Below are positions 3,719 to 33,666 of a DNA stretch of 64,000 nt, one piece after another. This DNA comes from Psilocybe cubensis (taxonomy: Eukaryota). Every line of letters starts with the position of its first letter. Position 1 is the first letter of the stretch. The position numbers were made by a program, and so were the translations under genes. A model generated the notes under the pieces. The model worked only from the letters and a program-made list of their open reading frames with translations, did not search any database and had not been told where the DNA came from. Where the stretch lies: positions 806,001 through 870,000 of the forward strand of contig CM039003.1 in assembly GCA_017499595.2 (NCBI GenBank), read 5' to 3'.

Positions 3719-5952
3719 ATGCTTCTCCCACTTCTCATTTTTCTGCTGCCCAGTCTACCTTTTTCTGCCAGCCTCAGCGTCACAAGGTCTACAGATTCGT
3801 CGGCGTCGCTCGTCGGGCCCTCAGTAACACTCGATTGTACGCACCCTAGCACTCTTCGCAAAAGCTAACTGATATACGTTACTAGATGGGACGTTCAACG
3901 GGCAGAGTGACGAAACGACGGGTATAATATCTTTCCGTGGTGTACGCTTCGCAGATGCTCCAACTGGTGATCTAAGATGGAGAGAGGCAGTATCTCCACC
4001 TTCGAAACATCTTGGAAAAGTTGATGCAACAAAGGTATTATTGAACATTGATTGGCCCCCTCTTCCTGAGAAATAAATTTGAACATATGTTTTGTCTCTA
4101 GTTTGCAGACGGGTGCATTGAAACGCCTCAAAGCTCGGTTACAGCGGGAACGTCAGAAGACTGTCTATTTGGAAATGTACCTTCCTGGATTTCGAAACTA
4201 CCTTGTTCCCTGTGCTGAACCGTTCGATTTATCCAGGTGTTCATTCCTATCAACACTACTGTTAACGACCGGCTTCCTATCTTGGTGTGGTTCCATGGTG
4301 CGGATTACTGTACACTTGTCTTCACTGGGCTGATAAGTTTGATCTTTTTAGGCGGCGGTTTCCAACAAGGCAACACTCATAATGCTCCCCCGGAGCTCAT
4401 CATGCAATCGTCGACGCAGCCACTGATATTTGTCTCTTTCGAATATCGGCTGGGGCAATTCGGGTTTCTTGGTGAGATGAATCACATCAAGCAGGAACAT
4501 CATCTAATAGTTTACAATAAGGCGGACACCAGATCAGGGAGGACGGAGTAACAAATGCCGGTCTATTAGATCAGGTACGTTTTATCAATATGAACGAAAG
4601 TGTTCGGAGAGTTTTACCGCTGAGTTAGAGAACTGCGTTAAGATGGCTGCAAAGATACATTGGAAAATTCGGAGGCGATAAAAAGTAAGCCAGTGTCTCT
4701 TTATGTATTGTGGGAAATTCATTCATCAAGCGCCCAAATAGGCGGGTAACCATCTGGGGTGAATCTGCTGGTGCAGGGTCTACTATGTTCCAGGTAATCA
4801 ATTCTCCACGCCGTCCAGGGGGTTAAAGAAAATAAATTCTCCTATGTTTCTCTGTCCAGCTTGTCGCAAAAGGTGGCGACAACGAGGGCCTTTTCCATGC
4901 CGCCATGGGCGACAGTCCGTCGATGAGCTTCACTCCCGAGTTTGACCAAGCATACGACGAAGGAATATTCCAGCAGTTCGCAGATCTCGCGTACGCCTCT
5001 CAGTCTACTGAACCTCCTATTACTTCTCAGTAATCTTTCATCTCACTATCTAGGGGTTGCGCTGATAAAGGCGATGATACATTGGAATGCCTCCGCGCGG
5101 CAAGCTCGCAAGCACTCACCCTCGCAGGAAGCCAGCTTCTCGCTGCACGCCCTTCAACCCTCTTCGTCTTCGCACCGATATTCGACGAGACTTTCATCAA
5201 CGAACGTCCCGTAGAAGCCTTCAAAGCCGGGCGCTTCTCCAACGTACCGGTGCTCTTCGGGTCCAACACCAACGAGGGCGCCAACTGGTCTGCATCGCTC
5301 AAAGACGCAGCAGCAAACACTTCAATGCCAAACGCGACGGAGGTCACCGTGTTCAATTTCTTGCTAGGACAATATGCCAGTTTGACCAATGAGTCGTTTG
5401 CTCGCGCGATGGATTTGTACCCGTTAGAGACGTTTGGAAACTCTTTCAGTTTACAAGGGCAGCAGATGTATGGAGAGGCCCGGTATATTTGTACAGCAGC
5501 CATGATAACTGGTGCTGCAGCTCAGAAAAACAAAGCATATCAGTTCCAGTATGTCAAATATATCTTTCTTTTTGCACCTCTTATCTTATCATGTTTATCA
5601 GCTACAATAATCCTCACTTGGGATCAAATCACGGAGCGGAGCTGGATGCATTCTTCTCCCCGCCTTCAAACTCAGACAGTTCTGACCAAGATCTCTTCTC
5701 AAAAATGAGAGAATTCTGGACATCATTCGTCACCACAGGAATACCTACCTCGACAGACAGCACCACTTGGACGGTAAGCCCACCTCTATTTATTTATTCC
5801 GATTTCTAAAAAAGTTATTGTAGCCTGTAAGCGACAGTCTTGGTAATCCACGCATTCTCCTCCAGCCCAATGGCATTGCTATGGAGCAATTAGGATCACT
5901 CAGCGATAGATGTACTTTCTGGCATAGTCTTAGCAGTGAGATCCAGACTTAA
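3719..5952 (+). CDS. Type-B carboxylesterase/lipase (alpha/beta hydrolase), secreted, multi-exon
   Basis: Hydrophobic N-terminus MLLPLLIFLL. FRGVRFADAPTGDLRW, SEDCL, VWFHG-GGF, EYRLGQFGFL, nucleophile elbow WGESAGAGS (~4755-4781), GSNTNEG, NHGAEL. Stop TAA at 5950-5952. Confidence 0.9.
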
Positions 5953-7821: not shown

Positions 7822-10800
7822 TCAAAGCTTAGCCTTGACCTTACGAAGCTCCTTTGCTTGATCGCGTAACACGCGACGAAGCAGCTTCCCGCTAGGCGAT
7901 GTTGGGATCGCCGACACAAACTCAACTCCCCCAACCAAATGCTTATAGTGAATCTTGTTTTGGGCAACGTGCTATGCAGAAAAACGCGTGTTCAAGGTAC
8001 GTGTCCAGCATCGAATCTTAGGCAGGAACTTACCTTGATAATTGACGCCTTGATTGCTTCAGCAGCAGCAGCGCTTTGGCTTGCCCGCTTTGACGCGTCT
8101 GCTGTGAGTACCACGTAAGCAAGGGGGACCTCCCCACCTATGTTCATACCTATCAGAATCGATGCAAATCAGGCATATTGAAATGTACACACTGTATTCA
8201 TCGGGAATGCCAACGACACAGGTGTTGGAGACGTCAGGGTGGTCAAGTAGGCAACCTTCCAGCTCCGCAGGTGCGACCTGGAATCCTTTTACCTTGACAT
8301 ATATGTTAGGTTTGCAGTCCCCATACCAATAACTAGCGAGCTAAAATTACCTTCATGATCTCCTAGCAAAACAGACATCAAGGATCCAAGCATTGAACAC
8401 AACGTAAACGGCCAGGTAGTCAATTGAGACACTAACCTTTAGCCTATCCAACACAATCATCTCCCCATCTTCCATAATCTTTACCTCATCCCCCGTTCTT
8501 ACCCATCTACAACGAGTTTAAATCGCGTCAATATAGATCCAATAGAGTTTGCTAATCTCGCCGCCAACGCGACCAATCTAGCAGGTTTACGATATAGCGG
8601 ATTAACTTACCCATCAAGAAATGTTTCTTTAGTCCTATAGATTAAAAATAAAGATGTGTTAACTCGAGCATAACAATCATAACACCGAGATAGATGCGAC
8701 CCAGGGTATATCCAAAGGGGGAGATAAATCATCATGAAGCAGAGGAAAAGGACGGTGTTTAAGGGGAGCAGCAAAGAAACGAGAAACTTACGCTTCAGCA
8801 TTATTTGCGTAGCCCAGCGCGACAGAAGGCGTCCATACGATCAGCTCCCCAGCCTCTCCATAGTCCGCCAACGTTCCATCCTGCTTAACGACGCGCGCTA
8901 CAATGCCAGGTAGCAGGTGTCCGCTACCTACAGCATTCCGAACATCAACACATTAGCTTTTTTCAAGACATAAACATAACAAGTAGTAAATATGCACGTA
9001 CTTCCGGACACACCTCGTTTTCGTGTAATAGGCCACATCGTAGTAGCAGTGCACGTTTCCGTCATTCCTGTATTGCAATGTTTAGATTATCAGAATTTGG
9101 TTCAAGATCACGTATAGACCCCCAAAACACAAAATACCGCAGACATACCATAAGCTTGACCAATATGCGCATCGGGGAACATGGAAAAGAGTTGTTGGTT
9201 CAGTTCATGCGAAAGCGGTGCAGCCCCACACATAATCATCCGGATGTGCTTTCGAAGATCATATTTCTTCGTCGCTGGATGCTACAACCAACTAGCGTCA
9301 ATTACCCCACTCCCCAAACCAAACGGCTCTCAACACCGCGTATCTACAAAAGGAAGGCTCACCTTGCACAGCAACACCACCTGCGGAGGCACAAGCCTAC
9401 ACAGAGAAATGATCGTCGACGTCGACTCGCAGTCAGCTAAAGATAGCCTATCTCGGAGTAGTGGTAGATCTTACAGGAGATGGCTAATCCGATGCCGAAC
9501 GATGCTATTCAGCATCTCTACGAAATTGAACTTCGGAATTACCACAAGAGACATCTAGATAGGGTGGTTGCGGGTAAAGGTTGTTGAGCATTACAGCAGC
9601 GCTCGCAACGCTATGTGACCAAAACGCATTGACTTACTCCACAGAACAAAATGTAGTGTAGCTAGAAATACCATCAATTAGCAAAAATAACGTTTTATTG
9701 GCGCCATTGCTCATGATTTGCTCTGACACAGAGGGGATAAAAGTAGACGCACATTAATGACAAGACCATATATATCTGAGAATGCAGTAATGAATGCTTA
9801 GCTCATGGCCGTAGAAAACGTCAAATCAAGCAAACTCACGATAGAAGGGCAACACTAGGCAAGAGTAAAAATATCCAAATGATCAATATAAAGACTTAGT
9901 ACTATATCACCGAGCCAGTGGCGTTGAAAGTTACAATACGCACCTCCTATCGCGACATCCCCAGGACGAAATCGTTGGTCATTCCAGTCGCAGTAATTTT
10001 GGTTCACCTTGTTGTGTGCTGCTATTTGAATGACATTCGCGATCAACGCGAAGTGAGGGATAGCGACAGCCTAGAATAACATACAAATTTCTCGGTCAAT
10101 GATCGCTTCAAATTGATTGATGATGCTGCAAGAATAAGATGAACAATTCACTGACCTTTGGTCGCCCAGTAGTGCCTGACGAAAAGCTCAGGAATGCCAA
10201 CTTGGTCTTCGCCTCGCCAGGAGCCAGCCGCCTCTCAACATACCCAACCTTATTCTTCATCCCAAACTCCACCAGGCTGCTGATTGTCTCGTGGCTGCTG
10301 CCCCGAAGCACCTCTCCGGAGGTAGTGTTATGACTTACGTCAAACAACACGACGCGCGCAGATGGGAGACCCGCCTCGCGTGCTGCGTCCAGTGCGATTG
10401 ACAACGACTCCGGGTGGACCATGATGACAGCGGCATTGGTCGCTTGCAATTGATACAGCAGCTCACTGCTCGTGTAATCTGGATTCGCGCCACTGGAAGG
10501 TAGACAAGATGGGAAGTAGGGTAGGTTCCATTTCAGCCCCCGCGTCCTGCCGCGGCGCACTAGATGGCGCGAAGAGAAGGGTAGGTTACTTACGATATGA
10601 CACCCCCGAGTCTGTGTACTGCCCAAATGGCGACAGGGTAGTCTGAGAATCATCACGTATCAGCGCCGGGAGAAGGATATGAAAGTTCTGTAGGAGTGGA
10701 TTCTGGAAAGCACGAGTATGTAGTACTTACCGACATGATTGCGGCTGAAGACGAGAACTTAACAAGGGAGAGCTTCCATGAGCAACATGAGGCATAGACG

Positions 10801-18983: not shown

Positions 18984-21254
18984 TCAAGTCAAATTTTCAT
19001 TCGTTATGCCATGCCAGAAATTACAGCGAGAAACCAGTGCGTCGTCAACTCGTTCCATCACAGAATTTTGTGGATTAAAGAGGATGCGTGAAAAGCTAGA
19101 ATCACTGTTGACGGGCTATATGACCAGTTCGATATTCAGTCATCTGGTGTCAGTGAGAATTGTACAGTACTAACCTGCCACTCTGGGCCAGATTTGGAAA
19201 CAGGCTTGCCCGTAGTTACGAATGATGTCAAATACTCTCGCATGATTTCAAAGAGTGCTAGATCATTATGGTCTGCATCTGTAGGGGGGTTAAAGAACGC
19301 CTGCAGCTCGTCCTCATGGTTGGAACCCAGGTGAGGATTATCGTAACTATGACGTGGGTCAGGGTCTGCAGGATCCTTAAATTCGCACAAAAGGCGTACT
19401 GGTATTGGTATGCAGAATCCCCGAAAGCCGGAACGGCAGGAGTTGCCATTAAAGCACTGCAAATATATCTAGCCTCACCATACATTTGCTGACCTTGCAG
19501 GCTAACATTACCACCGAAGTCGTTCAACGGATACAAAGAGAATCCGGTGTTGATGATACTTTCACTAGTCAGATTAGGATACTGTCCAATAAGGAAATTA
19601 AAGACAGTGGTTTCTGTTGCGTTTGCCAAAGATGTATTGGCCGCAGGATCCGGGATGGTGGAAGCCCAATGAGCACCTTCATTTGTATTCGAGCCTGAAA
19701 TGACGGGAATATGGGCGAACCGACCAGCTTGGTAGGCTTCGACTGGCCTTTCCTGAATCAGGGCATTATCGACAACTGGAGCAAAAAGAAATAAAGTATC
19801 CGGCCGGGCATCGAGTAGTTTGCTTCCGGCTTTTGCCACCGCAGTGCTGGTGAGTCCGCGAAGGCAGCTTAGTTGTCCTTTTTTGGCGGCGCTCGTTCCG
19901 CTTCCGCATCCTCTAGAATGAAGGTTAAAAATAAGAATATAAGAAGGTATATTTAACCCACGCAAGCTGTGCGAATTGCTGAAAGATATCTTCATCGTAG
20001 GCATCATTGAATGCAGGCGTGTAGACAAGAGGTGGACTGTCCATTATTGCCGCATGAAAGAGGCCTTCAGTATCTCCACCGTTTGCCATGAGCTGACGGA
20101 CAGGATCAACGACTGCAGTTACAGTGATATCTACATGAACTTACATGGTACATTATGGATCCTGCTCCTGCAGACTGACCCCACACTGTGACGTGGCTGG
20201 TATTAAATTAACATCAAGATGAAACTTATTGATCAGATTTTTTTAGATTTTGCGGGACGCTGCTTACCCGCTGTCCCCTCCAAATTGACCGATGTATCTT
20301 TGGACCCATTTCAGAGCAGCCCTCTTGTAACCATATTTAGTAACGTTATGTTTCCCTGAAGAGTGCATGCATCAGATGACATACCTGATCCAAGAGCCCA
20401 GCGTTTATTGACCCGTTGCTAGCAATTTCTGATCCTCCTGCAACGTATGACATTATCTTCTGGGGCAATTTATTTGGATATTAGTTGCTACAAACCCAAG
20501 AATCCAAATTGGCCGAGACGGTATTCAAAAGAAGCAAATACGAATGGTTGAGAACTTGATGCCATAAGTAAATCGGGAAGAAAGCTATGCGTGCTGCCAG
20601 ATTGGAATCCCCCACCTACATAGCTGACATGAGATCGACGATCATGGCATCAAAAGTAGGGACTGCTATACCATGGAACCATACTAGTACTGGAAGATTG
20701 TCGCCCACATGTGTATTGTTAGGCACAAAGATCTATCAGGCATTTGCTCAATTACGCTCTGGAGCATAGCGCAAAAATTCAGACTGACATTGCCGAAAAG
20801 GCAATCCTCAGATGTTTTAGTCGCCACAGTAGTTTGAGTCGTCCGAATGCATTCGGCGCCAAACTTGAAAACAGAAAATCAGGCCCATCCCAGAAAGCAT
20901 GATAAAGCATAACTTACCTTACTCGCATCCACAGTACCCAAATTCTTGGAAGGAGGAGAAATAGGGGCTGCCCATCGTAGATTTTTCGTCGGAGCGTCTG
21001 CAAACTTGACACCTCGGAATGAAATTATCCCATTCGTAGTATTCTGCTTTCCCTTGAATTTCCCGTCTACCAATGCCGATGAAAGATGGTTAGCGTCGAT
21101 GCCAATATATTAAGGAGCAAAAAAACATACAATCCAACGTCACTGTGGAGCCAATAAGAGCACCCATACTTCTTGTTGTGAGGTCGCATAGTACTAAACG
21201 TTGGAGAAAGAAGAGAAGCAGCAGCGACAGTATATAGTGCGTCCTGTCTGCCAT
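18984..21254 (-). CDS. Type-B carboxylesterase/lipase paralog 2, secreted, multi-exon
   Basis: Signal-like MADRTHYILSLLLLFFLQRLVLC, FRGVKFADAPTKNLRW, WGQSAGAGS, GSNTNEGAHW, SLQGQQMYGEARYIC (shared with paralog 1), NHEDEL. Stop at 18984-18986. Confidence 0.9.
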
Positions 21255-22394
21255 TGATCACCGTGAACAGCCTCAAAAGTGATGCAAAAGCAGGAGGCGA
21301 TACAATTTAGTTGGAAACTTGGGAGAAATGGAGGTGCGTGGAGATAAGGGCCCTATGTAAAATACATGGACTCTACTGCAGCCACAGGCAGCACGCAACT
21401 TCCCATGGTAAGAATTCTGAAATAGATACCCAAAAAAAGGTTGACAGTCTTTGTTCGCTCGGTTGGTTGTCGATATGCTTCATAGATATCAAGCTCTATA
21501 AAGACCCAGAATTTGTTGCGAGGAATACACAGCAAGATCTTTTTACTGTCGTTTTATATGAAATTTTAGGGAACTAAGGCCTCGACAACTTTCGGGAGTC
21601 TGCAAACTGGAGAACAACTCCACTGTGTTCTGACAATAGCGCAGGATAAAAACAGCCGGAACAAACATCCGAAATGCCTGTTGAAGGAGGGTAAAACCGT
21701 GGCATATCGGTGTAAAAGATAAGAAAAAGCAGTCTCAAGTCCCGTGGATTGTGTCAGGCTGGGTGCTAGAAGATAGGTTTGAAGAAGAGATTTCAAGTTG
21801 AAGTTGCAAGTCGTGCGAAATCGGACAAACACGCGATTACATGCGCCAGTCACATGCTTCTACGCGTCATTTAGACTTTCTTGGCCTTGCCTTGGCCTCG
21901 ATCGAATGCGAATGGTCTCCAGTGTCAATCATCCAGTCGAGCTAGATCTCAAGTAAAAGAGATAATCTCTCAGAGGAACTGGTAAGCCTTAGACATATAC
22001 AAAAAAATTTCCCGCTGTATTTTATGTGAGTTCTCCGACTTTGGCCCAAAAAAGGTGCGACAAGAGGCAGAAATATCTATTTTTGGAATGTCTAATATTA
22101 GGTCAAACCTCTAAAATTATGTCACTGGCAGTTGTTCTCTTTTGCCAAGCACCGATGGACACCTAGTAATTCGAAGATGGGAGGAACCACACCATGGCCT
22201 GACAGAGGAAAACGTTGATGAACTTCTATCTCGCCTACCTAGACAACTTACCGCGCACTCTGAGATAATGGCCACTGCAGTTATTGTGTGCTCGGAGCCT
22301 ATCTCGTGGATAATCCGTCGGATGCGCAGCTCCCACCTACAGCATATGATTGGATGTCCAGATAAAATTGCAGAAGCTATGGTCATGACTAACA

Positions 22395-22402
22395 TTGTAA
22401 CC
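22395..22402. repeat. Left 8-bp target-site duplication TTGTAACC
   Basis: Identical to 30681-30688. Confidence 0.85.
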
Positions 22403-22430
22403 GAGGACAGGTGGTTTGCGAAAAAAAATG

Positions 22431-22476
22431 GCGCGGACTGTCCGCCAGACTGTCCGCCGGACTGTCCGCCGGACTC
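22431..22476. repeat. Left subterminal array of 12-bp quasi-palindromic units (GGACTGTCCGCC)
   Basis: GCGCGGACTGTCCGCCAGACTGTCCGCCGGACTGTCCGCCGGACTC read directly from the sequence. Confidence 0.9.
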
Positions 22477-22808
22477 ATAGGCCTTTGGGTGGGCCTGTGT
22501 GACTTGGGTGAGTGACAGCCGTGCTCACTCTGCTCTACAGCGATCAGTGGCCTTCCCCGACACATTACCGCCCTCCGCCCCCCGCCCCCGACCTGGCCAT
22601 GAGAATGCTAAGTGCCACTGGTTAATATTTTAATGGCACCCCGCCTCTCCTGTATTTTTCCGCCTTTTCCACCAGTTACTCCTGCGGTGTGCTACTTCCA
22701 TAGACAAGGCCCGTTTAGGTAGTATTTATTGTAGCTGTTTTAGTAGACAATAGATGTAAAATGCTAATACAATTACATCGTTGAACAACTTCTAACCTTG
22801 CAACCATT

Positions 22809-25096
22809 ATGTCCTCTTCATCTAGTGCATATTCTTCATCTACTCTCCAATCAATCCTTCAAATCCAAGCTAGTATTGCCAAATATTTGGACTTTGAAGG
22901 ATGTTTGAAGTTCATTGAACTTATCCAACTCCTAAAGCCAACAATCTGTCTGTCACAACAACCAGGACTAGCAGAATCTGATGCGGGTGAAGACAAATGT
23001 CCAGCACGGTTGCGTCTGAACGTACACACTTTTCTCGCACAATCTTTAAGTGTCGATCATGAGGCTATGAAGATTATTTGGCGTGCAATGGCCAATATTG
23101 CGTGGAATTTTAGGGTTGATGAAAGCTGTGTTCATTCCTTTGGTCAACGTCATATTCAATGCTTTCTTGACTATGGAAGACAGAATGGCATAGGTGAGTT
23201 AGCATATATATCAAGCTAAAACCACTACTAATTCTAAAATCGGAGCCTTTTATCATCTAATGCCTCCTGTTCGTCATTGCCTTGATCCACGATGTGTTAT
23301 CAAGCCCAAGACTTCTAAAAAGGATGAGCTCCATCGACGTCCACTGAAAGAAGCACATAGCCGTTCTGTTACTGTTTTTACACAATCATTTGGACCCATC
23401 CCGGGTATTTCTACTTCAATGTTTTGTTCGGGTATGTGTTTAGTATTGTTATTTTGTTGAAACTCCCCCTTCTAACAATAATAAACGCAGGATGCCAAAC
23501 TCGATACTACCCTAACTACTGGGTAGATAGAGCACAATCCACTCGGACATTTTACCGTATACATCGCACCTTTCTGCATGTTACAGAAGGAATTTTTATG
23601 GACATTGCCACGTTGGAATTGTTTACGACAATGATGTTGACGTCTTGGTAGCTTCTTTCTTTTGTTGTGAATTTCTTCCATTAACTTGGAGTGTACAGGA
23701 CTTCTGCTTCAAATTGTGCCCGCATCTATAATGAAGCAATAGCTTCAAAGTCCCTGTCATCCTCTCTTCCTGCAGCATATTCCAAAAGCATGGTGCTAGA
23801 ACACAATGACGTATGGAATGGTCTTAGTCTCTTCTGGCTTCTTGAAGACTCGGAAGAAGAAGATGAGGTCTTACAAATTGACCATGTAGCGCCTAGTCAA
23901 GCCATCCGCCTCAGAAAAGCCTTAAAGAGACGGAACCTTCGGATGGCAGGGACTGGTCAGGAAGCTTGGAACCATGTATGTGATTTATGCTGCTGGTATA
24001 ATGATTTGCCCGATGGAACACAGAGTAAATTTTGAAAATTTATGATTCTAGTGATATATAACTCATGCTTGATTCTAGCTTTCCTTCGTTCTGTGGTTAC
24101 TGATGGCATAACTATTGGACGGCCTACCTGCTCTATTCATGACTGCGATATTCCTTTGGATTCCGTCAAACATCGGTTCTGCCCTACACATAAAGATCAG
24201 AACCTTATCTGTGCGGTTACTAGCTGCTCAGCTCCCATTGATGAGGGCTATCAAACGTGCAGTCTGAAGGATCACCGAGCTCTTGAAGCATACAACGATA
24301 TCCACAATAAAGCAATGTTTCAATTAAAACTTCGGCTTGCCCGTCTCAAAACCTCACAGCCCACTGATGCCTTTTCCACTGATGATGGCCAGTCAACCAT
24401 ATTTGGCGATGAAGAGGTTTTGATTGACGCCAATGGTGTCTGTGACGAGAAGTCAGAGAAGGGTAATCAAACATTGCGAGCTCGGTTTGGAAGGCGACGC
24501 ACTCATAATGAAGAGCTGTGTGTGGCATCGTGTGGTGTAATTCTTGGACGAGCAACATTCTATGGTTCAGAGGCCCCAAACGGAGTACGGGTGCGTCATT
24601 TTTCTTGCTTCTAGAGAATTGTTGCTTATTTAATTTTCAGACATTTTGGAAGACTTTGTTTCCTACCCAAAAGTCTCTTCCAGGAGTTCTTTGGCACGAC
24701 AATAACTGTCGAATTATGTTAATGCTTGAAAAGGAGAAAGACACGTACTTTTCCCACTCAGCATTACCCGTTGACGTATTCCATTTCAAGTGTAAACATA
24801 AAGCTCAAGACGACAAATGTAATGCCAATTGTAACCCAGCAAAATGGCCCGAGCTTATGACGCCTGATGGGAAGTGGCGTTTTAACTCATCTGCAGCAGA
24901 ACAAGCCAACGCTTGGCTAGGAGGGTATCAAGCCATTGTTCGTGAGATGCAGGCCGACAGATATGAATTCTTTTTGGACGAGTTAATCAAGAGGCGAAAT
25001 CGAAACATCATTAAGGATTTGGAGAAAAAAGGGAAAAATCCACATGAAATCCCAAGGGATTTTTTACTCAAGCCAGATACACCCAGAGTCGATTAG
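22809..25096 (+). CDS. KDZ-type transposase with CxC5 and CxC6 cysteine clusters (6 exons, apparently intact)
   Basis: CxC5-like PPVRHCLDPRC...SMFCSGCQTRYYPNYWV. CxC6-like CSIHDC...RFCPTH...CAVTSC...TCSLKDH. Core motifs VVTDG, RRRTHNE..CGVI, HDNNC, VDVFHFKCKH, FNSSAAEQANAW. Exons join in frame at GT-AG sites. Confidence 0.88.
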
Positions 25097-25921
25097 TGAT
25101 ATGTAGGAAGTTGTAATAAAGAGCATTAGAAATCATGTTGGAACCTACATTAGTTGTTGTGAACAAGCAGCAATCCGGGTTTAGTTGTTGCTCTGTGTCT
25201 TGAAAGCCTGCCGCTCGCACGATAACCCCGGCCCAGGGGTGATCCTTGGTGTTATCAAACAAGCGGCAGTTTTTCAAAACATGCATCCAGTATTGCCTCG
25301 CTACCCCACAACAATAAGCTGTAATAAGCTTTGCCACTGATGAAACTGAGAAACACATATGGGCACGGCGTCAACAAAGTGTGAAGTGTGAATGCCAGTT
25401 TATTGAAAGCTAGGGTGCTAACACTCGATCAATAACCAGACCCAGAACAAACGTGAATCAAAAACATTGAAACTGAAGGCAGGAAATCGCATTAACATGC
25501 CGAAAACTCACCGCGTCATATATCAACCCATGCTGATCCCACACCTTGACTTGACTCGCAGCACCTCCGCAACGCCCAACATCCTTCACACGCGCTGTTG
25601 TCACGCATGTCTACCACCTCATCCTCATCCTCCTTTCCTAAGTATTGATGCGCATACATGCTTCCGGGGTACATTGGCATTTCGTGTTCTACATCACTCT
25701 GGCACACTGAGGTCGAGTTGAGAAACGTTCGTCCGGTTGATGAGAGAGATGAGGTTGTGGGGTTGTGGGCAGCATTGTGGAGACAATATTGAACGGGAGT
25801 CGCAAAAGGGAAGAGACCGATTCTGAATACCACTTTTGAGTTGTACAGAGAACAGGATTGCGCTGAGCTCTGAGTCCGTCGGCGTCCGCGTGAGCGCACC
25901 CATGACATCTGCGAGCTCGTT

Positions 25922-26736
25922 AATAAGTAGCCGCTTCTCCCCAATCCACCGAGTAACTCTGTCAGCGTCTATTAATTCCAACAGCTCAGGATCATCCTTC
26001 ATTTGCTCGCGGGTCAGCATAATGCGATATGCAGCCTGTCCAGAATCCACCACATGATCCGTCGAACCAAGTTCCTTCAGCATTGCTGCTCGAGTGAGCG
26101 ACTTGATACCATCGGCGGCTAATATGATATCAGCCTCGACTCGCACGGCTGGACCTACTAATGGCGTAGCCAAGAACGATGGCTTCCTGTCATCCCCGCC
26201 AAAATTCACTTCAGATACGGCAGTCGAGAAGTGAAAGGTAATGGCAGATTGTGCTTTGCAGCCTTCGTAAAGGCTCCCAGCGAGCGAGGCACGGTGTCCT
26301 ACCATGTGAGCGTAGCCATATTTATCTTTGACGGAGTCGAACTCGACAAAGCCGAGCTCTTTGTCGGTTGTTCCCTCTGGGAAGATTTAAGCACATTGAT
26401 TTACTATGTCAAGAACTGATATTACTTACGTCTGATGCTCGTGCTCTTGACTAAGACAGCCTCGGACTCGATCTTTTTCCAAACGCCGAGTTTATCGAGA
26501 ATGCGTGCCATATTGGGGGCAAGTTGAATTCCTGCTCCTACAAAACCTAGGTTGGGCGCAGTTTCGTAGACATCGATATAGAGAAACCCTTCGTGTGCTA
26601 ACGAGAGGGCACAAGTGAGGCCACCCATGCCTTGATACTAGCTATGAGTTCATCATGTGAGTCAACTAACCGGAGGAAGGAGCTCACCTGCTCCAAAGAC
26701 CGCGACTCTCAACCGTCTGACGTCGTCGAAGGTCAT
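25922..26736 (-). pseudogene. 3'-truncated FAD-dependent monooxygenase (salicylate-hydroxylase-like) inside the transposon
   Basis: MTFDDVRRLRVAVFGAG|MGGL Rossmann motif, GAGIQLAPN, ADGIKS, GQAAYRI. Similarity ends at RWIGEKRLLI and no GD(A)xH motif follows. The frame runs on into unrelated sequence to a stop at 25694. Two introns are retained. Confidence 0.82.
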
Positions 26737-26745
26737 CGTTATCAG

Positions 26746-26913
26746 ACCTAGAGAAAGACACAAGACTCAGTGAACATGATGCATGAACGACTATGTTCCA
26801 ATCTACCTAGAGAAAGACACGAGACTAGATAATAGTGTAGTTAGTGACTAGGCGAGAGGATGCTAAAGGGAGAGTGGAAACTTTACCTCAGTGAACATGA
26901 TGCATGAACGACT
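26746..26913 (-). repeat. 47-bp duplication: intronless copy at 26746-26792; second copy at 26805-26824 + 26887-26913, split by a 62-nt GT-AG intron (26825-26886)
   Basis: Direct comparison shows one mismatch. On the minus strand the intron reads GTAAAG...CACTAAC...TATCTAG. Confidence 0.85.
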
Positions 26914-27431
26914 GAGGGAAAGAGGGCCGATGGATTTATTGAGACGGAAGCTATGAGCGCAATGAGCAGGTCATTCCTTGGGGAAGAGTGCTGTAGACAT
27001 ACCACAATTAAAAAACTCGCACTTGTTTCCGGCTACAAATACAAGCCAGAGCCCGTTGTCATCCAAAAAATTTCGATGGAGTGATTTGACGGACTTACAG
27101 CACGGATTTTGAGGTCGGGTCTTGCAGGGAGTCTTGACGTTGACGAGCGAGCTGTTCTACTCGCCTCTCAGTGACCGGGGGTTGTTGATGTGGTTTTGAG
27201 TATGTTGCCAGTGTATTTCCGTGCCCGAAAATTCCTGGTAACATACTCTCTGCCTCTTGGTTGGTGGAAACAGCGAACGGGTGTGTTGGGAGGTGTAAAC
27301 GATGGATGTGCACACGGTCATGTGACTACACGCGCCCTCACGACTTCGTCAATTTCTGGGTCGTCGGATTGGCATTAACTGTAAATTTGTTCAATTGTAA
27401 TATAAGTAATCGTTACAAAGTGCTACTGTAG

Positions 27432-30224
27432 CTACAGAGAATCAGGCTCTAAAGTCAAGTCAATGATTTCCCAGGTACCAAAAGCAATGCCAGGATGAGC
27501 AGAAACATCCTGCTTGATAGGTTTTTGGCCTGGAGAATCCACGGTCAGGTCAATAATATCACCGCTGATAACAGCACGCTCTTTTCCTTTTGCAGAGCCA
27601 GTGAGGGTAATACTATCACTCTTCTCTTCTTTTATAGTAGGAGTAGATATTGCTGCATCCTTGGTGATAGCATGCTTGTCTTGCAAAAGTTGCATTACTT
27701 CTAGCATAGAAATCCGAAGATCTTCTTGAATGAGAAGTGTCACTGTTTCAGGAAAAAGCACCTCTTCAATAACTGAATCATAGGTGAGAGGCTGTAGAAT
27801 TGACATATCTATGTCTTCTGAATCTTCAGGAAACATTTCTCTTAGCTCAGAAATAATAAGAGCTTGTATCTCTGGACCATAGCTTTGTAGAAGATACAAA
27901 TTAGTAAATCTAGCCATCTAAGAGCAGTATAAAATTACTTACTAGGCAATGCAATCTAAAAGAAGTTGATTCTTTGATTTATCCGGAGTTTGACTGCAGC
28001 TAGCTTCAAAGGTTTTTCTGGAATTACAGAAAAACATGCTTTCTTCAGGGTCCATAAGAACGTAACAAAGTAATTCTTTATCACCCTGGATTTGATGACG
28101 GAGACTGGATATCTTTTCTTTGGTCAATAATCCACCATTGACATTAGACTGAGCTATATGAGGCAAGGAAATATGGGAAAGAGGGCTGACACGAGCACTA
28201 GGACTGATGTTTTCTGAAGAACTTGAGTCATCCAAGCTGTCTGAAGAGGAGGACTCAGAAAAGGTATCTGGAATATCCTGGGGGTTTTTTAAGGCAGCCT
28301 GTAATGACCTATATGTTGCCTGTTTCGAGTTGCCCATGTCCACAAAATAGCCAACAATATCTTTGTCATATGTTTTCCAATAAGATTTGTGTTCATAAAA
28401 TGTGGATTTGTGAAAAGAAGCATCTGGAAAAGCAGCATAGAAAGCATCTTTGACACTTATACGAGATCTTGGACGAATAGATAATGCAGATTTCTTGGAT
28501 GACTTCATATAAGGGTTGCTTCTAGAGGTTTGAGATTTGGATAGTGTTTCTTGCATTTGAAGAAATCCATTGTGAATTTGATAGACCTTGAAATCAAACG
28601 GCCACTGCTTTGTAGAGTTATGAGATTTCTTTAGAACCTTTGGTGGTGGTGGTAAGTTATGAGATTTCTTTAGAACTTTTGGTGGTGGGGGTAAATCACT
28701 GTCTGATGAATTTGGGGTTCTATATCCATGTGGGCGCTTCTTCCTAGGAATATGGATATGATTTGATAAAATTGGACTAGCAGACCGATTTCTTGAGGTA
28801 GAATGTGTAATTGTTAGAGAAGATGCTTCCTGTATTGCAGATTGACGAATAGGCGACACTAATGTGGTGTGTTGTTGGGCTAACAAAGCTTGTGATGTCT
28901 TTGGTTGTAGTTTGAGCTCATCTTCAATTCCAGGACAGTGCTCTAATGTTTCTCTAAGGCTTGGACGGATTTTTAAAATCAGTCTTTGGCCCTTTTCAAC
29001 AGTAAGAACACTTTCCATGGTGAGAGTTACCCATTCTCCTTTCCAGTAATCCAGTTTGGTTGTTGGCTGAAGCTCCAAGTTTTTCATTAACTCAGCAGAG
29101 TCTGACAAGCGAAAATGGGGAAAGGATTGTATATAATATTCAAGCCTAATAGGAGGCTGTCCATTCTAGAAGAATATTATTAACTGCTTGAATATAAACA
29201 AGAATATGAACTCACAGTGTGATATACAACCAAAATACATGTTCTTTTTCGTTGTTCATCCATTTCATGTTGTTTAACTTTTAGAGATTTGAGGTTTCGG
29301 GTATGACTAAGTAATCCTGTTCGCTTTTGTGCCCATGTACCTCCTACAGGTTGAGCCAGGCCTCTTGGAATAACCTGTCCAAGTCCGAACTGAGTAGCAG
29401 GTGGTGTAGAAATAACCATATCCTGGTTTGGGGATTGATTTGGAGAGACCTGAGAAGCAGAAATATTGAAAGGGCTCGGTGGTGGTGAGATAGAAATGTT
29501 TTGGGTAACAGATTGGGTAGAAAGAGGAGGAAGAGGAGGAGAATGAACTTGAGAGATTCTTTCTGGAGAAGCAGGAGTTGAAATATCAGGAGCATAAGGT
29601 ACATTTTCGGGCTGGCGATGGGCATGACATGCCTTTCTAAAAGCTTGCTTAGAAATGGCATCTTTGCAAGCTTTGGTACAACAGGTCTTGCATTTATTTT
29701 CAATGCAAGTTCTACTCCCTTGAGTTCGGGTTCCTGACTTTGTAAAGCATGTAGAAACTGTGCAGAGTAGTTTATCTGATATTGGAATAGGAATAACACC
29801 AGTAGAGTTGGACTGAGCTCGTCTTTGTTGAGTCTGATTTGGCTGAGAAGAAGAATGATTGGCAGTGTTTGAAATGGAAATATAAGGTCTAAGAGTGCGA
29901 GGATAGCCCTGTGGATCATCAGGAAAATTAATTCGGTGCAAAAGACGTTGGGCATCCTCATATATATATGCAGGAGTATGATGATAGGTGTACAAACACC
30001 TATAATCAGAACACTAGACAATTAATTAGACTTGCACAATAAGCTAAGTTAATAACACATACAGTTTGACAGAGAGATCCTTTCAAATGCCTCTTGGAAG
30101 GAGATCCAGTAGCTTTGTATATAGCTATAGGTGGCATAGGTCTTCCACATGGGCGGTTGGATCTTCCTGGACAAAGACCAATAGGTGATATAGTAGGATC
30201 AGGAGGTAGGTTATCTGGGTTCAT
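27432..30224 (-). CDS. Transposon partner protein with Cys-rich N-terminal clusters and a C-terminal RTC4-like domain (4 exons)
   Basis: Exons join in frame (CQT|CSDYRC, VVYHT|NGQPP, CIAY|YGPE). Cys cluster CTVSTC...CIENKCKTCCTKAC...CHAH. Motif WPFDF...GF...STFYEHKSYW. C-terminal YYGP...PLTYDSVIEEVLFPETVTLLIQEDL resembles the RTC4 domain. Confidence 0.7.
28616..28693. repeat. 39-bp tandem duplication encoding LPPPPKVLKKSHN twice
   Basis: AGTTATGAGATTTCTTTAGAAC(C/T)TTTGGTGGTGG(T/G)GGTA occurs twice in tandem. Confidence 0.9.
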
Positions 30225-30618
30225 TGCTAAAACTATGCTCTAAAACTCAAGAACTTGTGCCAAATTTATAGATTTTCGGTTGTCATATTACATATATCTC
30301 CCTATAGAGAGCTACATAGTATGTCAATGCAGAGATTTCTAGCTTTGGCGCTACAAAGCGCGTCTAAACACGAGTGGCTGCGTTGGGCCAGCCACAATAT
30401 CCAAAAATGGAAAAGAAGCCGCAATAAGCCGGCCCAATTCTCACGTGTTTGGCAGTAGTGTCAAGTGGCAACAACAATGCGTGCGCCGTGTAGCGCATCA
30501 AGCGGCGGGGCATTGTTGGAAAGCATTGAGCTCGCTGCCTCGAACAGTGACCATGCAAGTGGGCCCCCGACGTGGCCCGGAGGTCACACTATGGTCACAA
30601 ATACCCACGATACACCCA

Positions 30619-30652
30619 GAGTCCGGCGGACTGTCCGCCAGACTGTCCGCGC
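30619..30652. repeat. Right subterminal array of quasi-palindromic units
   Basis: GAGTCCGGCGGACTGTCCGCCAGACTGTCCGCGC, ending 28 nt before the element end. Confidence 0.9.
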
Positions 30653-30680
30653 GAAAAAAACTCGTGGACGAACCTTTCTG

Positions 30681-30688
30681 TTGTAACC
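30681..30688. repeat. Right 8-bp target-site duplication TTGTAACC
   Basis: Identical to 22395-22402. Confidence 0.85.
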
Positions 30689-30819
30689 TTGTGCTGAGCT
30701 CCGAAACAGTGAAATGAGCCCATGTGATGACAACTGAATTACCATCTGCCAAAGGGGCCCCTATAGGCACTGACAAATCTCATACCACAAACGACTGACA
30801 CTTCATACTTATGCGACCA

Positions 30820-33666
30820 CTACAGCTTGGACTTGACCTTCCGGAGCTCCCTTGCTTGTTCACGCAAAACACGTCGAAGTAACTTTCCGCTCGGGGTGGT
30901 CGGAATGCTTGAGACAAATTCCACGCCGCCTGCCAAATGCTTATATTGTGTTTTGTGGGTTTTGACGTGCTGGACGAGACATATGATTAGACGAAAAGAA
31001 CCTTGTTGCGTTTCGGACGGACATTCTTACCTTAATGATAGATGCCTTGATTTCATCTGCAGCTGTCTTGCTCATTTTCGCTCTATTCGCGGCGTCTACT
31101 GTCAACGTAACAAATGCAAGTGGAATCTCTCCGCCTCATCATTATGGTCAGAATTATTATTAACACGCATGAACAAATTGCTCACTGTAATCATCTGGAA
31201 CCCCAACAACGCAGGTACCAGACACGTCGGGATGATCCAAAATACATCCTTCGAGTTCCGCTGGAGCAACCTGAAATCCTTTCACCTGATTGACATGGAT
31301 GTCAGGATCTATCCGCCCGGCATTTAATATTACATACCTTCAAAAACTCCTGATAGTTAACATAGTCAGTGTGAATTTCGTCCCAACCAAGGAAAATCAC
31401 ACCTTCAACCGATCAATCACCATCATCTCTCCGTCTTCTCCGATTTTTACCAAATCACCTGTCCTTACCCAACTGAAATGCAAAAGACTATTCAGATTCA
31501 TTTTATTGCCGTACGGAAAATTGTATATACCCATCGACAAACGTTTCTTTTGTTCTGGGAAAAAGAATAGAGAAAGTCAAAGTCGACGCCAACAATGACA
31601 ACGGAGTGCTCACGCTTCATGGTTGTTTAGGTACCCCAATGCAACTGAAGGAGTTTTTATGACCAATTCACCAGCTTCGTCGAAACCGGCCAAAGACCCA
31701 TCGCTTTTGACTACCCGGGCCACCATTCCAGGGATAAGTTGACCACTGCCTAGGTTTACACAATTTAGCCCATTACGTGACAGGTAAGTATTGTGAGCCT
31801 TACTTCCAGCGACTCCTCTTTTCTGCGTGGTGGGCCACAAAGTGGTGATTGTTGCGGTTTCGGTCGTTCCTTCATATGGTGTTCCAATAGTTTGAGGATT
31901 AAGCATACACAGTCACGTACCATGTCCTTGACCGATTTGGGCATCAGGGAACATTTCGAAGAGTCGTTGATTCAGCTCATGAGAGAGGGGAGCTGCTCCG
32001 CACATTATCACTCGAATATACCTGCGAAGGTTGTAATCCTTGACGGCAGGATGCTGAAAGATATAATCCAACGTTCAGTATCGACATATGCTTCAAAAAC
32101 CTTATGGATACCTTGCATAATAAGACCACTTGAGGAGGTACAAGCCTATAGAAAGGTTATCAAATTTTTCAAAGAAAGCTAGAAAGAAAATACATAAGGT
32201 GAGTAATTCGATGGCGCTCGATGCTTTTGAGGAACTCGATGAAGTTAAATGTCGGAAACACGACCAAAGACATCTGGTTGATTCGTTCGTTTCTCTGTCA
32301 CAATAAATGAAGTTGAAATCTCGAATTTGACATACCCCAAAAAACAATGTATAATGAAGCTGCAATGATCACACCCATTAACGAGCTGAACAAGACCTAA
32401 AGGGAACAAAATTACGTTCATGGCAAGGCCATACATATCTGTAGTATAGTGTTAGTTTACATACAAGGCATCAAGGTCTCTGTAAGATTTCACATACGAT
32501 AAAACGGGAGTACTGGTAGTAGTGTGAGTCATCTACGCCTTCAACACTTAGGAAATTAAACTAACCTGCACTAGCCACATCTCCAGGTCTGTATCGTTGG
32601 TCCTTCCAATCACAATAATTTTGATTGAGTTTATTATGAGCAGCCACCTGGATAGTATTCGCAATTATTGAATAATGAGGTATAGCTACGGCCTAAAGTT
32701 TCAAAGCTCAGTCATAAACCGTCTATTTTCAGAGTATTAACTCCACCTTTGGGCGGCCTGTTGTACCGGATGAAAAAGAGAGAAATGCAAGTTTGGTTTT
32801 GGCTTCTCCAGGAGCAAAGGTTCGTTCCGTGAATGCGAGGTTACTTCTTAAACCCAGTTCAACAAGGCTATCGACTGTTTCGTGACCCTCGGAGGGCTTT
32901 TCAGTGCCATCATTCGCACTGAACAAGATTATTCGGTCTGAAGGCAACCCGGCTTGCTTTGCAACCTCGAGTGCAACATCCAGGGAGTCGGGATGAACAA
33001 TCATGAGAGATGCCTTTGTTTCATGAAATTGATACAGCAATTCGCTGCTCAGGAAATCAGGATTTGCTCCTCTACAAAAGTCGGATTTTAGAGCCGTTAG
33101 AGGTAGATGATTAGCTGTGGGACGTACGATATAATCCCTCCAAGCTTCAGTACCGCCCAAATCGCAACAGGATAATCTAAATATACCAACGTAAGATGTT
33201 AGCTCAGGGGAAAAGGATGTACATACCCATCTGATTACGACAGTATAAAAGAACTGTGGAACGAACGCATCGTTGTCATGTATAATAGTCAACTACAGAT
33301 GATAGGGATTAACCCACCAACTTCGTCTTCTCCTGCTCTTCGTTTTAATTAAAAATTTCACAGATACCAATGGCGTAGACAACACACCTAGACCAAACCT
33401 GGATTTCAACCCACGCGCAAGTGAATCCGTTCTAAACCGCAACTGACGCACGAAAGGGGTCAAACAAATAGGTAGACATAGACCTAGTATTGTTATCCTA
33501 CCTCCCCTTCCGTGAAAGTCTTCCCAGTTTTATCGTGAATTAGCCAAGGAACACCATTTCGTCTGCCCGGACGCATTGGATGATTAGTCTCAAACATAAA
33601 TTGAGGGATCGTGACATCGTCAGGAATGTAGGGCAGTTCTATTCCTTCAATTGGATACCGTTCCAT
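30820..33666 (-). CDS. 4-coumarate:CoA-ligase-like AMP-binding enzyme 3, PTS1 (SKL)
   Basis: LPYIPDDVTIPQF, FLSFSSGTTGRPK, WVRTGDLV, VKGFQVAPAELE, IPTTPSGKLLRRVLR, C-terminus ...KVKSKL* (TAG 30820-30822). Confidence 0.9.

Follow-up and report, generated by a model that had tools for sequence, protein, structure and literature searches.

A DNA transposon of the mushroom Psilocybe cubensis, designated element A, carries a mosaic of sequence copied from other loci between the 3' ends of its two genes, including the 5' part of an FAD monooxygenase gene. A sister transposon in the same genome, element B, holds an unrelated mosaic at the same position, and a cargo slot, filled or empty, recurs in CxC5/CxC6 KDZ-type elements of mushroom fungi. 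The reading favored here, to which a probability of roughly two in three is attached, is that the slot is neutral and that host fragments are captured in it stepwise and passively, as filler, within an active and presumably autonomous transposon. Element A lies in a window of 64,000 nucleotides (assembly GCA_017499595.2, contig CM039003.1, positions 806,001 to 870,000), which is the whole stretch of DNA analyzed and to which bare positions refer; C labels denote contigs of this genome (G000), L labels loci and X labels public sequencing runs. Public sets assign identical proteins to Psilocybe cubensis. The features of element A are collected in Table 1.

Table 1. Element A, its genes, the pieces of its cargo and its surroundings, in window coordinates.
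Feature	Positions	Strand	Details
Left 8-bp target site duplication (TSD), TTGTAACC	22395..22402	.	fits both sides of the empty-site joint
Element A	22403..30680	+	8278 bp; ends 5'-GAG...CTG-3'; imperfect subterminal inverted repeats
Transposase gene	22809..25096	+	6 exons, 673 aa, CxC5 and CxC6 domains, open frame
Cargo slot	25097..27431	.	between the stop codons of two convergent genes; 2335 bp, of which 1946 bp traced to other loci
Hairpin	25194..25279	.	86 nt; 80-85% to 12 other loci in several unrelated repeat families
Degenerate repeat piece	25336..25851	-	516 nt; C10:47731-48236 (91%), C14 (90%); donor orientation not assignable
Predicted chimeric ORF after splicing	25694..26736	-	310 aa: 235 monooxygenase, about 23 calmodulin-like, about 52 repeat-derived
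Calmodulin-like EF-hand gene, exon piece	25853..25920	-	68 nt; C11:910699-910766, 61/68; joined in the donor's reading frame
FAD monooxygenase fragment	25922..26741	-	5 nt of 5' UTR, exons 1-2, most of exon 3, two introns; C8:2271105-2271924, 811/820
Retained coding intron 2	26377..26429	-	53 nt; spliced in a donor-allele contig of X11
Retained coding intron 1	26631..26687	-	57 nt; spliced in a donor-allele contig of X11
Copia LTR piece	26740..26922	-	positions 66-242 of a 242-bp LTR; 75% to C9 copies
RPS10 5'-UTR intron, 3' part	26924..27077	-	C5:334626-334780, 88%; stops 3 nt short of the donor ATG
RPS10 upstream/5'-UTR exon and intron donor site	27078..27198	-	C5:334848-334968, 93%; the next piece follows after a skip of 67 donor nt
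3' region of gene 2	27199..27431	.	
Second element gene	27432..30224	-	convergent; RTC4-like domain near the end; exon model provisional
Right 8-bp TSD	30681..30688	.	
Host AMP-binding-enzyme gene ending SKL	30681..33292	-	element A in its 3' UTR, about 140 nt past the stop

The donor of the monooxygenase fragment is an intact gene for a 444-residue FAD monooxygenase with three introns (G000:C8:2270414-2271919). Its last exon occurs only once in the genome, and its exon 3 matches solved monooxygenases. Fragment and donor are identical except at nine sites. The fragment begins 5 nt before the start codon and ends within exon 3 at codon 235, and thus corresponds to the N-terminal 235 residues. 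Class A flavoprotein monooxygenases are characterized by three motifs, GxGxxG, DG and GD. The donor has all three; the fragment keeps GxGxxG (residue 15) and DG (residue 172) and lacks GD (donor residue 319) together with the C-terminal 209 residues. This agrees with a first-pass annotation made from the sequence, which had described two coding introns and the N-terminal part of a flavoprotein without its GD motif and had proposed that a full-length donor be sought and its identity to the fragment measured. The X11 contigs in which the introns are spliced carry donor alleles and continue into the donor flanks. Of six donor differences one is missing from the X9 contig, and X13 contains one donor allele at less than its share; this suggests that some differences between fragment and donor segregate at the donor.

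The first-pass annotation had also assigned an upstream region and a 5'-UTR intron to the monooxygenase gene. This assignment failed: similarity to the donor stops at 26741, which rules out the upstream region as monooxygenase DNA, and 26740-27198 consists of a copia LTR (C9) and the 5' UTR of RPS10 (C5). On the downstream side, the calmodulin-like piece and the 516-nt repeat piece had not been noticed. Read along the minus strand, the mosaic consists of two RPS10 pieces (93% and 88% identity), the copia LTR (75%), the monooxygenase (99%), the calmodulin-like exon (90%) and the repeat (91%). Five donor loci, all on other contigs, abut here; of the successive joints the first two measure 0 and +1 nt, the third overlaps by a few bases and the last two each measure +1 nt. 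At 27098 the intron donor site belongs to RPS10, whose acceptor was not captured. The LTR piece starts about 22 nt past a TATA-like word and stops at the last base of the LTR, an R-U5-like extent, and in a closer LTR family reads diverge at the same point. Neither a coding frame nor a direction could be assigned to the C10/C14 repeat. A donor search with 27190-27445 matched only the four copies of element A, and Rfam gave no match over the slot.

The element itself was assigned from its genes and its ends. The transposase agrees at 672 of 673 positions with a public protein (P0171) on which Pfam recognizes the CxC5 and CxC6 cysteine clusters (PF18718, E 2.5e-30; PF18721, E 2.8e-26). The Pfam KDZ profile had no match on the full-length transposase. 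Four acidic residues, D360, D542, D567 and E609, are invariant in 28 homologues and would fit a DDE core. Homologues of the second gene sit downstream of related transposases. CxC5/CxC6 transposases are taken here to be Dileera-type members of the KDZ group, and Iyer and colleagues are said to have described these clusters in 2014 as the mark of Dileera. The TSD is 8 bp in the copies of element A, in its short derivatives and in element B, the length given for Dileera in PMC12730594. Element A is accordingly described as a putative Dileera-type KDZ DNA transposon, autonomous as judged from its sequence. A Helitron is contradicted by the 8-bp TSD and by the lack of a Rep/helicase domain in the ORFs of element A that were scanned.

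Four full copies of element A are present on four contigs, three of them identical and the fourth with a single-base difference, and each has its own 8-bp TSD. Nine short derivatives (580-631 bp) have the same ends, all with an 8-bp TSD, and no cargo was seen in them. The ends are only imperfect, with an inverted repeat of 33 nt (85%) in subterminal position. Of four public runs, three (X9, X11 and X13, from three studies) contain the empty site as a joint from 22394 to 30681 with eight letters fitting both sides; X10 gave only low-depth pieces and was left out. The insertion is therefore recent, and presence or absence of the element is polymorphic at this site, as expected of a mobile element. 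An assembly artefact was ruled out by the four copies with distinct TSDs and by coverage across element A in X9 and X13. The first-pass annotation had called the element TSD-bounded, which is correct, and had proposed transduplication by a KDZ-type element; the traced donor, breakpoints inside genes, four transposed copies and an empty site free of the fragment support this. The contrary outcome that it had named, no intact donor and a fragment resident at this position in strains lacking the element, was not what was found, since the donor is intact and the empty site of other runs is without the fragment.

Several further observations concern the copies and their surroundings. The C5 copy (flanks in L043, G000:C5 about 651155-659433) appears to interrupt an exon of a P450-like gene, according to our reading of the ORF at the reconstructed empty site. 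This insertion and the one in the window run in opposite directions relative to host transcription. Reads of X9 across 22748-29677 contain joints that skip 1799, 339, 111 and 508 nt at 85% likeness, which suggests that this sample contains a relative of element A that has diverged or suffered deletions. Across the left half of the window, paralogous genes for carboxylesterases and AMP-binding enzymes occur in repeated copies (4627-4690 and 20262-20325; 7826-7958 and 30824-30956).

Element B (C11:1293847-1300900, L063/L064) is present as a single full copy with an 8-bp TSD and the same GAG...CTG ends. Its CxC5/CxC6 transposase is intron-poor and 41% identical to that of element A, and the layout of two convergent genes is the same. 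Direct comparison of the two second genes gave a weak match (E 0.007), and they are linked through third elements that match both. The slot of 2123 bp, again between transposase and second gene, contains a mosaic of at least nine loci. Donors include eIF4E, a 2-oxoglutarate dioxygenase, a PLP decarboxylase-like gene (weak match), dynactin p62 in three pieces and a vacuolar protease; four further loci have no Pfam matches. Comparison of cargo among copies, as proposed in the first-pass annotation, thus shows near-identical cargo in the four full copies of element A and a different mosaic in the sister element. The view that metabolic gene fragments are captured proved too narrow, the donors including RPS10, a calmodulin-like gene, eIF4E, dynactin p62, kinases and an LTR. 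The right end of element B has a 650-bp copy at C3:2042338. To its left, outside the TSD, lies a TET/JBP-like ORF (PF12851, E 8.8e-6; L063:630-1541, G000:C11 about 1289.6-1290.5 kb) that probably belongs to another element; no TET/JBP gene was found inside element A or B. Degenerate relatives occur at C11:1027k and C5:1773k, and distant families, with ORFs listed, on C6, C8, C9 and C13.

Relatives in metagenomes were surveyed among the best 80 of 353 confirmed loci, in 44 of which both stop codons could be placed. The slot measured 55-443 bp in 34 of these 44 and 1.4-4.2 kb in the other 10, and no extended similarity was found among the long slots. Host genes were matched in five of the ten: an SRPK-like kinase, an aldo-keto reductase (weak) and a kynureninase in L135; a kinase (weak) and a lyase domain in L183; a sugar transporter and an AAA ATPase (weak) in L162; a gene of the P. 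cubensis genome studied, at 67-76%, in L127; and a weak match in L181. No host-gene match was obtained in the other five. The donors so named are presumptive, and the kynureninase piece of L135 had no match in a DNA search of the P. cubensis genome. Pfam, run on 272 ORFs from 12 candidate spacers, recognized only the domains in L162 and L183 and the RTC4 domains of L137, L138 and L164 (the slots of L137 and L164 were short on measurement); nothing was recognized in L121, L127, L132, L146, L150, L181 or L142. Complete TSD-bounded elements with the same ends and an 8-bp TSD were recovered for three of seven loci tested (L127, L132 and L181). The slot of L132 (L132:3727-5142), one of the closest relatives of element A, has no Pfam match and to our eye looks like a piece of a broken hAT transposase.

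The 86-nt hairpin within the slot was considered separately. It has a conserved loop, and L074:5394-5487, L075:5377-5471, L076:5652-5746, L077:5125-5218 and L115:4761-4855 are among the 12 other loci. The z-scores range from -4.2 to -6.6, and 5 of 28 pairs show compensatory change across six sequences. There was no Rfam match and no match in the 80 metagenome loci. The hairpin is possibly a structured RNA or a DNA signal passed between transposons. Three copies of a 1.3-kb repeat that contains it are 99.6-100% identical (L115:4558-5892, L116:4488-5822, L117:4605-5941) and probably represent a young non-autonomous element. Beside the hairpin in L074 (about 5100-5700, G000:C10:1304 kb) lies a serine hydroxymethyltransferase fragment (PF00464) in what seems to be a different transposon, which indicates that other transposon families of this genome also carry host scraps.

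A shorter form of the predicted chimeric ORF, of 293 aa (P0001), is publicly annotated as "FAD-dependent monooxygenase OpS4", and is likely a false enzyme gene. It might instead be a functional gene in which the RPS10 5' UTR and the LTR drive a spliced 310-aa chimera of benefit to element or host. The ATG and splice sites are intact, the calmodulin-like piece continues in its native frame, the public record treats the ORF as a gene, and the monooxygenase piece, whose spliced frame is open, differs from its donor by five silent and two replacement changes. This silent excess gives P=0.01 against full neutrality; the value becomes P=0.08 once purifying selection on the donor is allowed for, and some of the differences appear to segregate at the donor. 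Joining in frame has a one-in-three chance, the missing GD motif and C-terminal residues argue against an enzyme, and the same fusion of monooxygenase and calmodulin was absent among the best 120 of 397 protein matches. X11, whose status as RNA is a guess, has the empty site, donor alleles and donor flanks and is uninformative on the chimera. Neighboring pieces are decaying. In element A, CpG sites have been lost 18 times in the cargo and twice in the donors (P=4e-4, with C14 left out as a duplicate of C10); the corresponding counts for element B, 21 and 12, do not differ significantly (P=0.16). The coding pieces of element B and the calmodulin-like piece of element A have many replacement changes. 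A functional gene is thus highly improbable, although the excess of silent changes and open frame of the monooxygenase piece do count against a passive reading. Most likely the cargo is passive, and neither a function nor a preference for metabolic genes is evident.

Under passive filler capture, a neutral slot would lie between the 3' ends of two convergent element genes, and unspliced host stretches of about 40-800 bp would be patched into it one by one. Patching would most likely occur as filler when end-joining or short template switches repair an internal break left by excision or arising at a fragile site. Insertions in the slot alone would spare both genes, and only elements with such insertions would keep transposing. 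The monooxygenase piece would be the newest addition, set among older pieces, and the cargo would decay passively with the chimeric ORF as a by-product. The anatomy, the donors, the mobility and the recurrence of filled and empty slots are observed directly; the stepwise order, the repair mechanism and the neutrality are deduced from them. Earlier work offers precedents: end-joining in yeast captures two to four joined fragments at breaks, including retrotransposon LTR cDNA (PMC11372161), and gap-filling is a model for animal Pack-TIRs (PMC8277862). In both elements the pieces most similar to their donors are in the middle of the mosaic, which fits insertion at internal breaks, with the proviso that ages are less certain where donors are multi-copy: the order is read from identities, and the LTR and kinase-like pieces come from multi-copy families and may have been compared with the wrong paralogue. 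No joint expected of a precursor of element A without the monooxygenase piece was present in the four public runs. What random filler does not predict is the orientation. Leaving aside one unassigned piece in A and two in B, every piece, 4 of 4 in element A and 7 of 7 in element B, reads in sense and in a common direction, with a chance of about 0.002, or 0.016 if only Pfam-assigned genes are counted. The shared direction follows the second gene in A and the transposase in B. A further cause must therefore be invoked for the sense co-orientation: fragments from a strand-biased source (R-loop or nascent RNA), or selection against antisense captures.

An RNA-templated assembly is one rival. A reverse transcriptase, from copia or a host polymerase, would copy nascent unspliced transcripts and jump between them, and the cDNA would be patched into the slot. 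Head-to-tail sense order extends to L135 (3 of 3) and L183 (2 of 2), single extra bases occur at three joints of element A, pieces from one donor skip forward by 67, 238, 56, 257 and 34 nt, and the LTR piece spans an apparent R-U5, the extent of a strong-stop cDNA. Yet none of these skips is a precise intron, every intron that was spanned is kept (two in the monooxygenase, one in dynactin, partial introns in RPS10 and others), no poly(A) remnants were seen at the joints, and the pieces of L162 lie on both strands; the model is considered improbable. The first-pass annotation had taken the retained introns to indicate capture at the DNA level: they do point to an unspliced template, but they do not establish a strictly DNA template. 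A wider form of the idea, in which CxC5/CxC6 KDZ elements of mushroom fungi have a recurring capture site that stitches transcription-linked, strand-specific host copies (nascent RNA or R-loop, perhaps with copia reverse transcriptase) head-to-tail in sense, is possible if on balance unlikely. If true, it would make an autonomous, currently mobile DNA transposon a mobile exon-shuffling platform able to yield in-frame chimeric genes. Two tandem insertions in a host gene, resolved into a hybrid by complementary deletions as shown for Pack-CACTA (PMC6379663), would explain cargo between intact left and right halves, and element A does insert into genes, here a 3' UTR and on C5 the P450-like exon. 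This route is very unlikely, given that pieces of 44-150 bp would require very close insertions, that the joints have no element remnants and the C8 donor no footprint, and that the two genic insertions are oppositely directed. Least expected, on a par with a functional gene, is nesting, the mosaic being a non-autonomous element or Helitron of its own that lies inside the KDZ element. Direct repeats of 8 bp at 25111 and 27395 do flank the slot of A, and other repeat families share the hairpin, but repeats of 7-8 bp arise by chance in the AT-rich borders of the element B slot too, no inverted repeat of at least 8 bp flanks the slot of A, and no nested ends beyond chance-level repeats were found. 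The restriction of the mosaic to the four copies of element A largely refutes nesting for the P. cubensis genome, and relatives hold different cargo in the same slot. Passive filler capture, supplemented by a cause for the strand bias, is therefore preferred.

Comparison with known systems places the finding close to Pack-like transduplication, here in autonomous KDZ-type elements of mushroom fungi. As in the Pack-TYPE elements of plants (Pack-MULE, Pack-CACTA), which spread multi-locus host fragments by cut-and-paste with a TSD (PMC8903248, PMC6379663, PMC5861414), element A has host gene fragments between its ends and donors elsewhere in the genome. Pack-TYPE elements are, however, non-autonomous by definition (PMC8903248), and element A, in a fungus and of the KDZ group, combines a fixed slot with an open 673-aa transposase and an intact second gene. 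The label Pack-type used in the first-pass annotation consequently does not apply as it stands, the fragment being one piece of a multi-donor mosaic in an element autonomous by sequence. Animal Pack-TIRs, for which gap-filling and FoSTeST models were proposed, likewise have internal breakpoints, short or no microhomology and unspliced donors, but are mostly single-copy and near their donor (cis bias), unlike the many unlinked, co-oriented donors per element in A and B (PMC8277862). Maize Helitrons also build stepwise multi-donor mosaics, including in putative autonomous copies, but they are rolling-circle elements without a TSD (PMC3288121), whereas A and B have an 8-bp TSD and their newest pieces in the middle.

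Among fungal elements, the hAT transposon of Pyrenophora tritici-repentis that transduplicated histone H3 is likely autonomous and carries a host-derived gene, but one whole, old H3-like gene (PMC3538342), not many short recent fragments with donors at 75-100%. The nearest published element is a CxC5/CxC6 insert of 6,792 bp in MSH4 of Pleurotus ostreatus, which resembles element A in domains, size, recent genic insertion and the presence of copia LTRs inside some copies (PMC7641404); its authors tied it to copia, and neither a TSD nor host-gene cargo is reported in the passages describing it. Fungal KDZ elements share the 8-bp TSD, given for both Dileera and Zisupton, and multigene organization (Kojima 2025, PMC12730594; Cryptococcus KDZ1-3, 10.1101/2025.05.19.654958). 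Their cargo is described as whole TET/JBP or helper genes, and the word "fragment" is absent from the main text of Kojima (PMC12730594). No account of host-gene mosaics in KDZ or CxC5/CxC6 elements was found in the literature, on which Repbase, Iyer 2014 and supplements may bear.

Capture of gene fragments by DNA transposons has been argued mainly from old or non-autonomous elements of plants and animals, and Pleurotus Helitrons are reported not to capture host fragments (PMC4289320). The present elements add the KDZ group, and mushroom fungi, to the range of Pack-like capture. Element A is autonomous by sequence, polymorphic among isolates, and small; its host fungus is culturable and its genome compact, and relatives with empty slots provide a natural control. 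Because donors can be traced at 75-100% identity, the order of capture, the chemistry of the joints and the strand bias lend themselves to measurement, and laboratory selection for new captures is conceivable. Cargo of this kind has already been annotated as a monooxygenase gene, and such slots can thus inflate counts of enzyme families. Copies of RPS10, eIF4E and dynactin inside silenced elements could give rise to small RNAs that act against host genes. The orientation bias, which the favored model alone does not predict, offers the best handle for a test.
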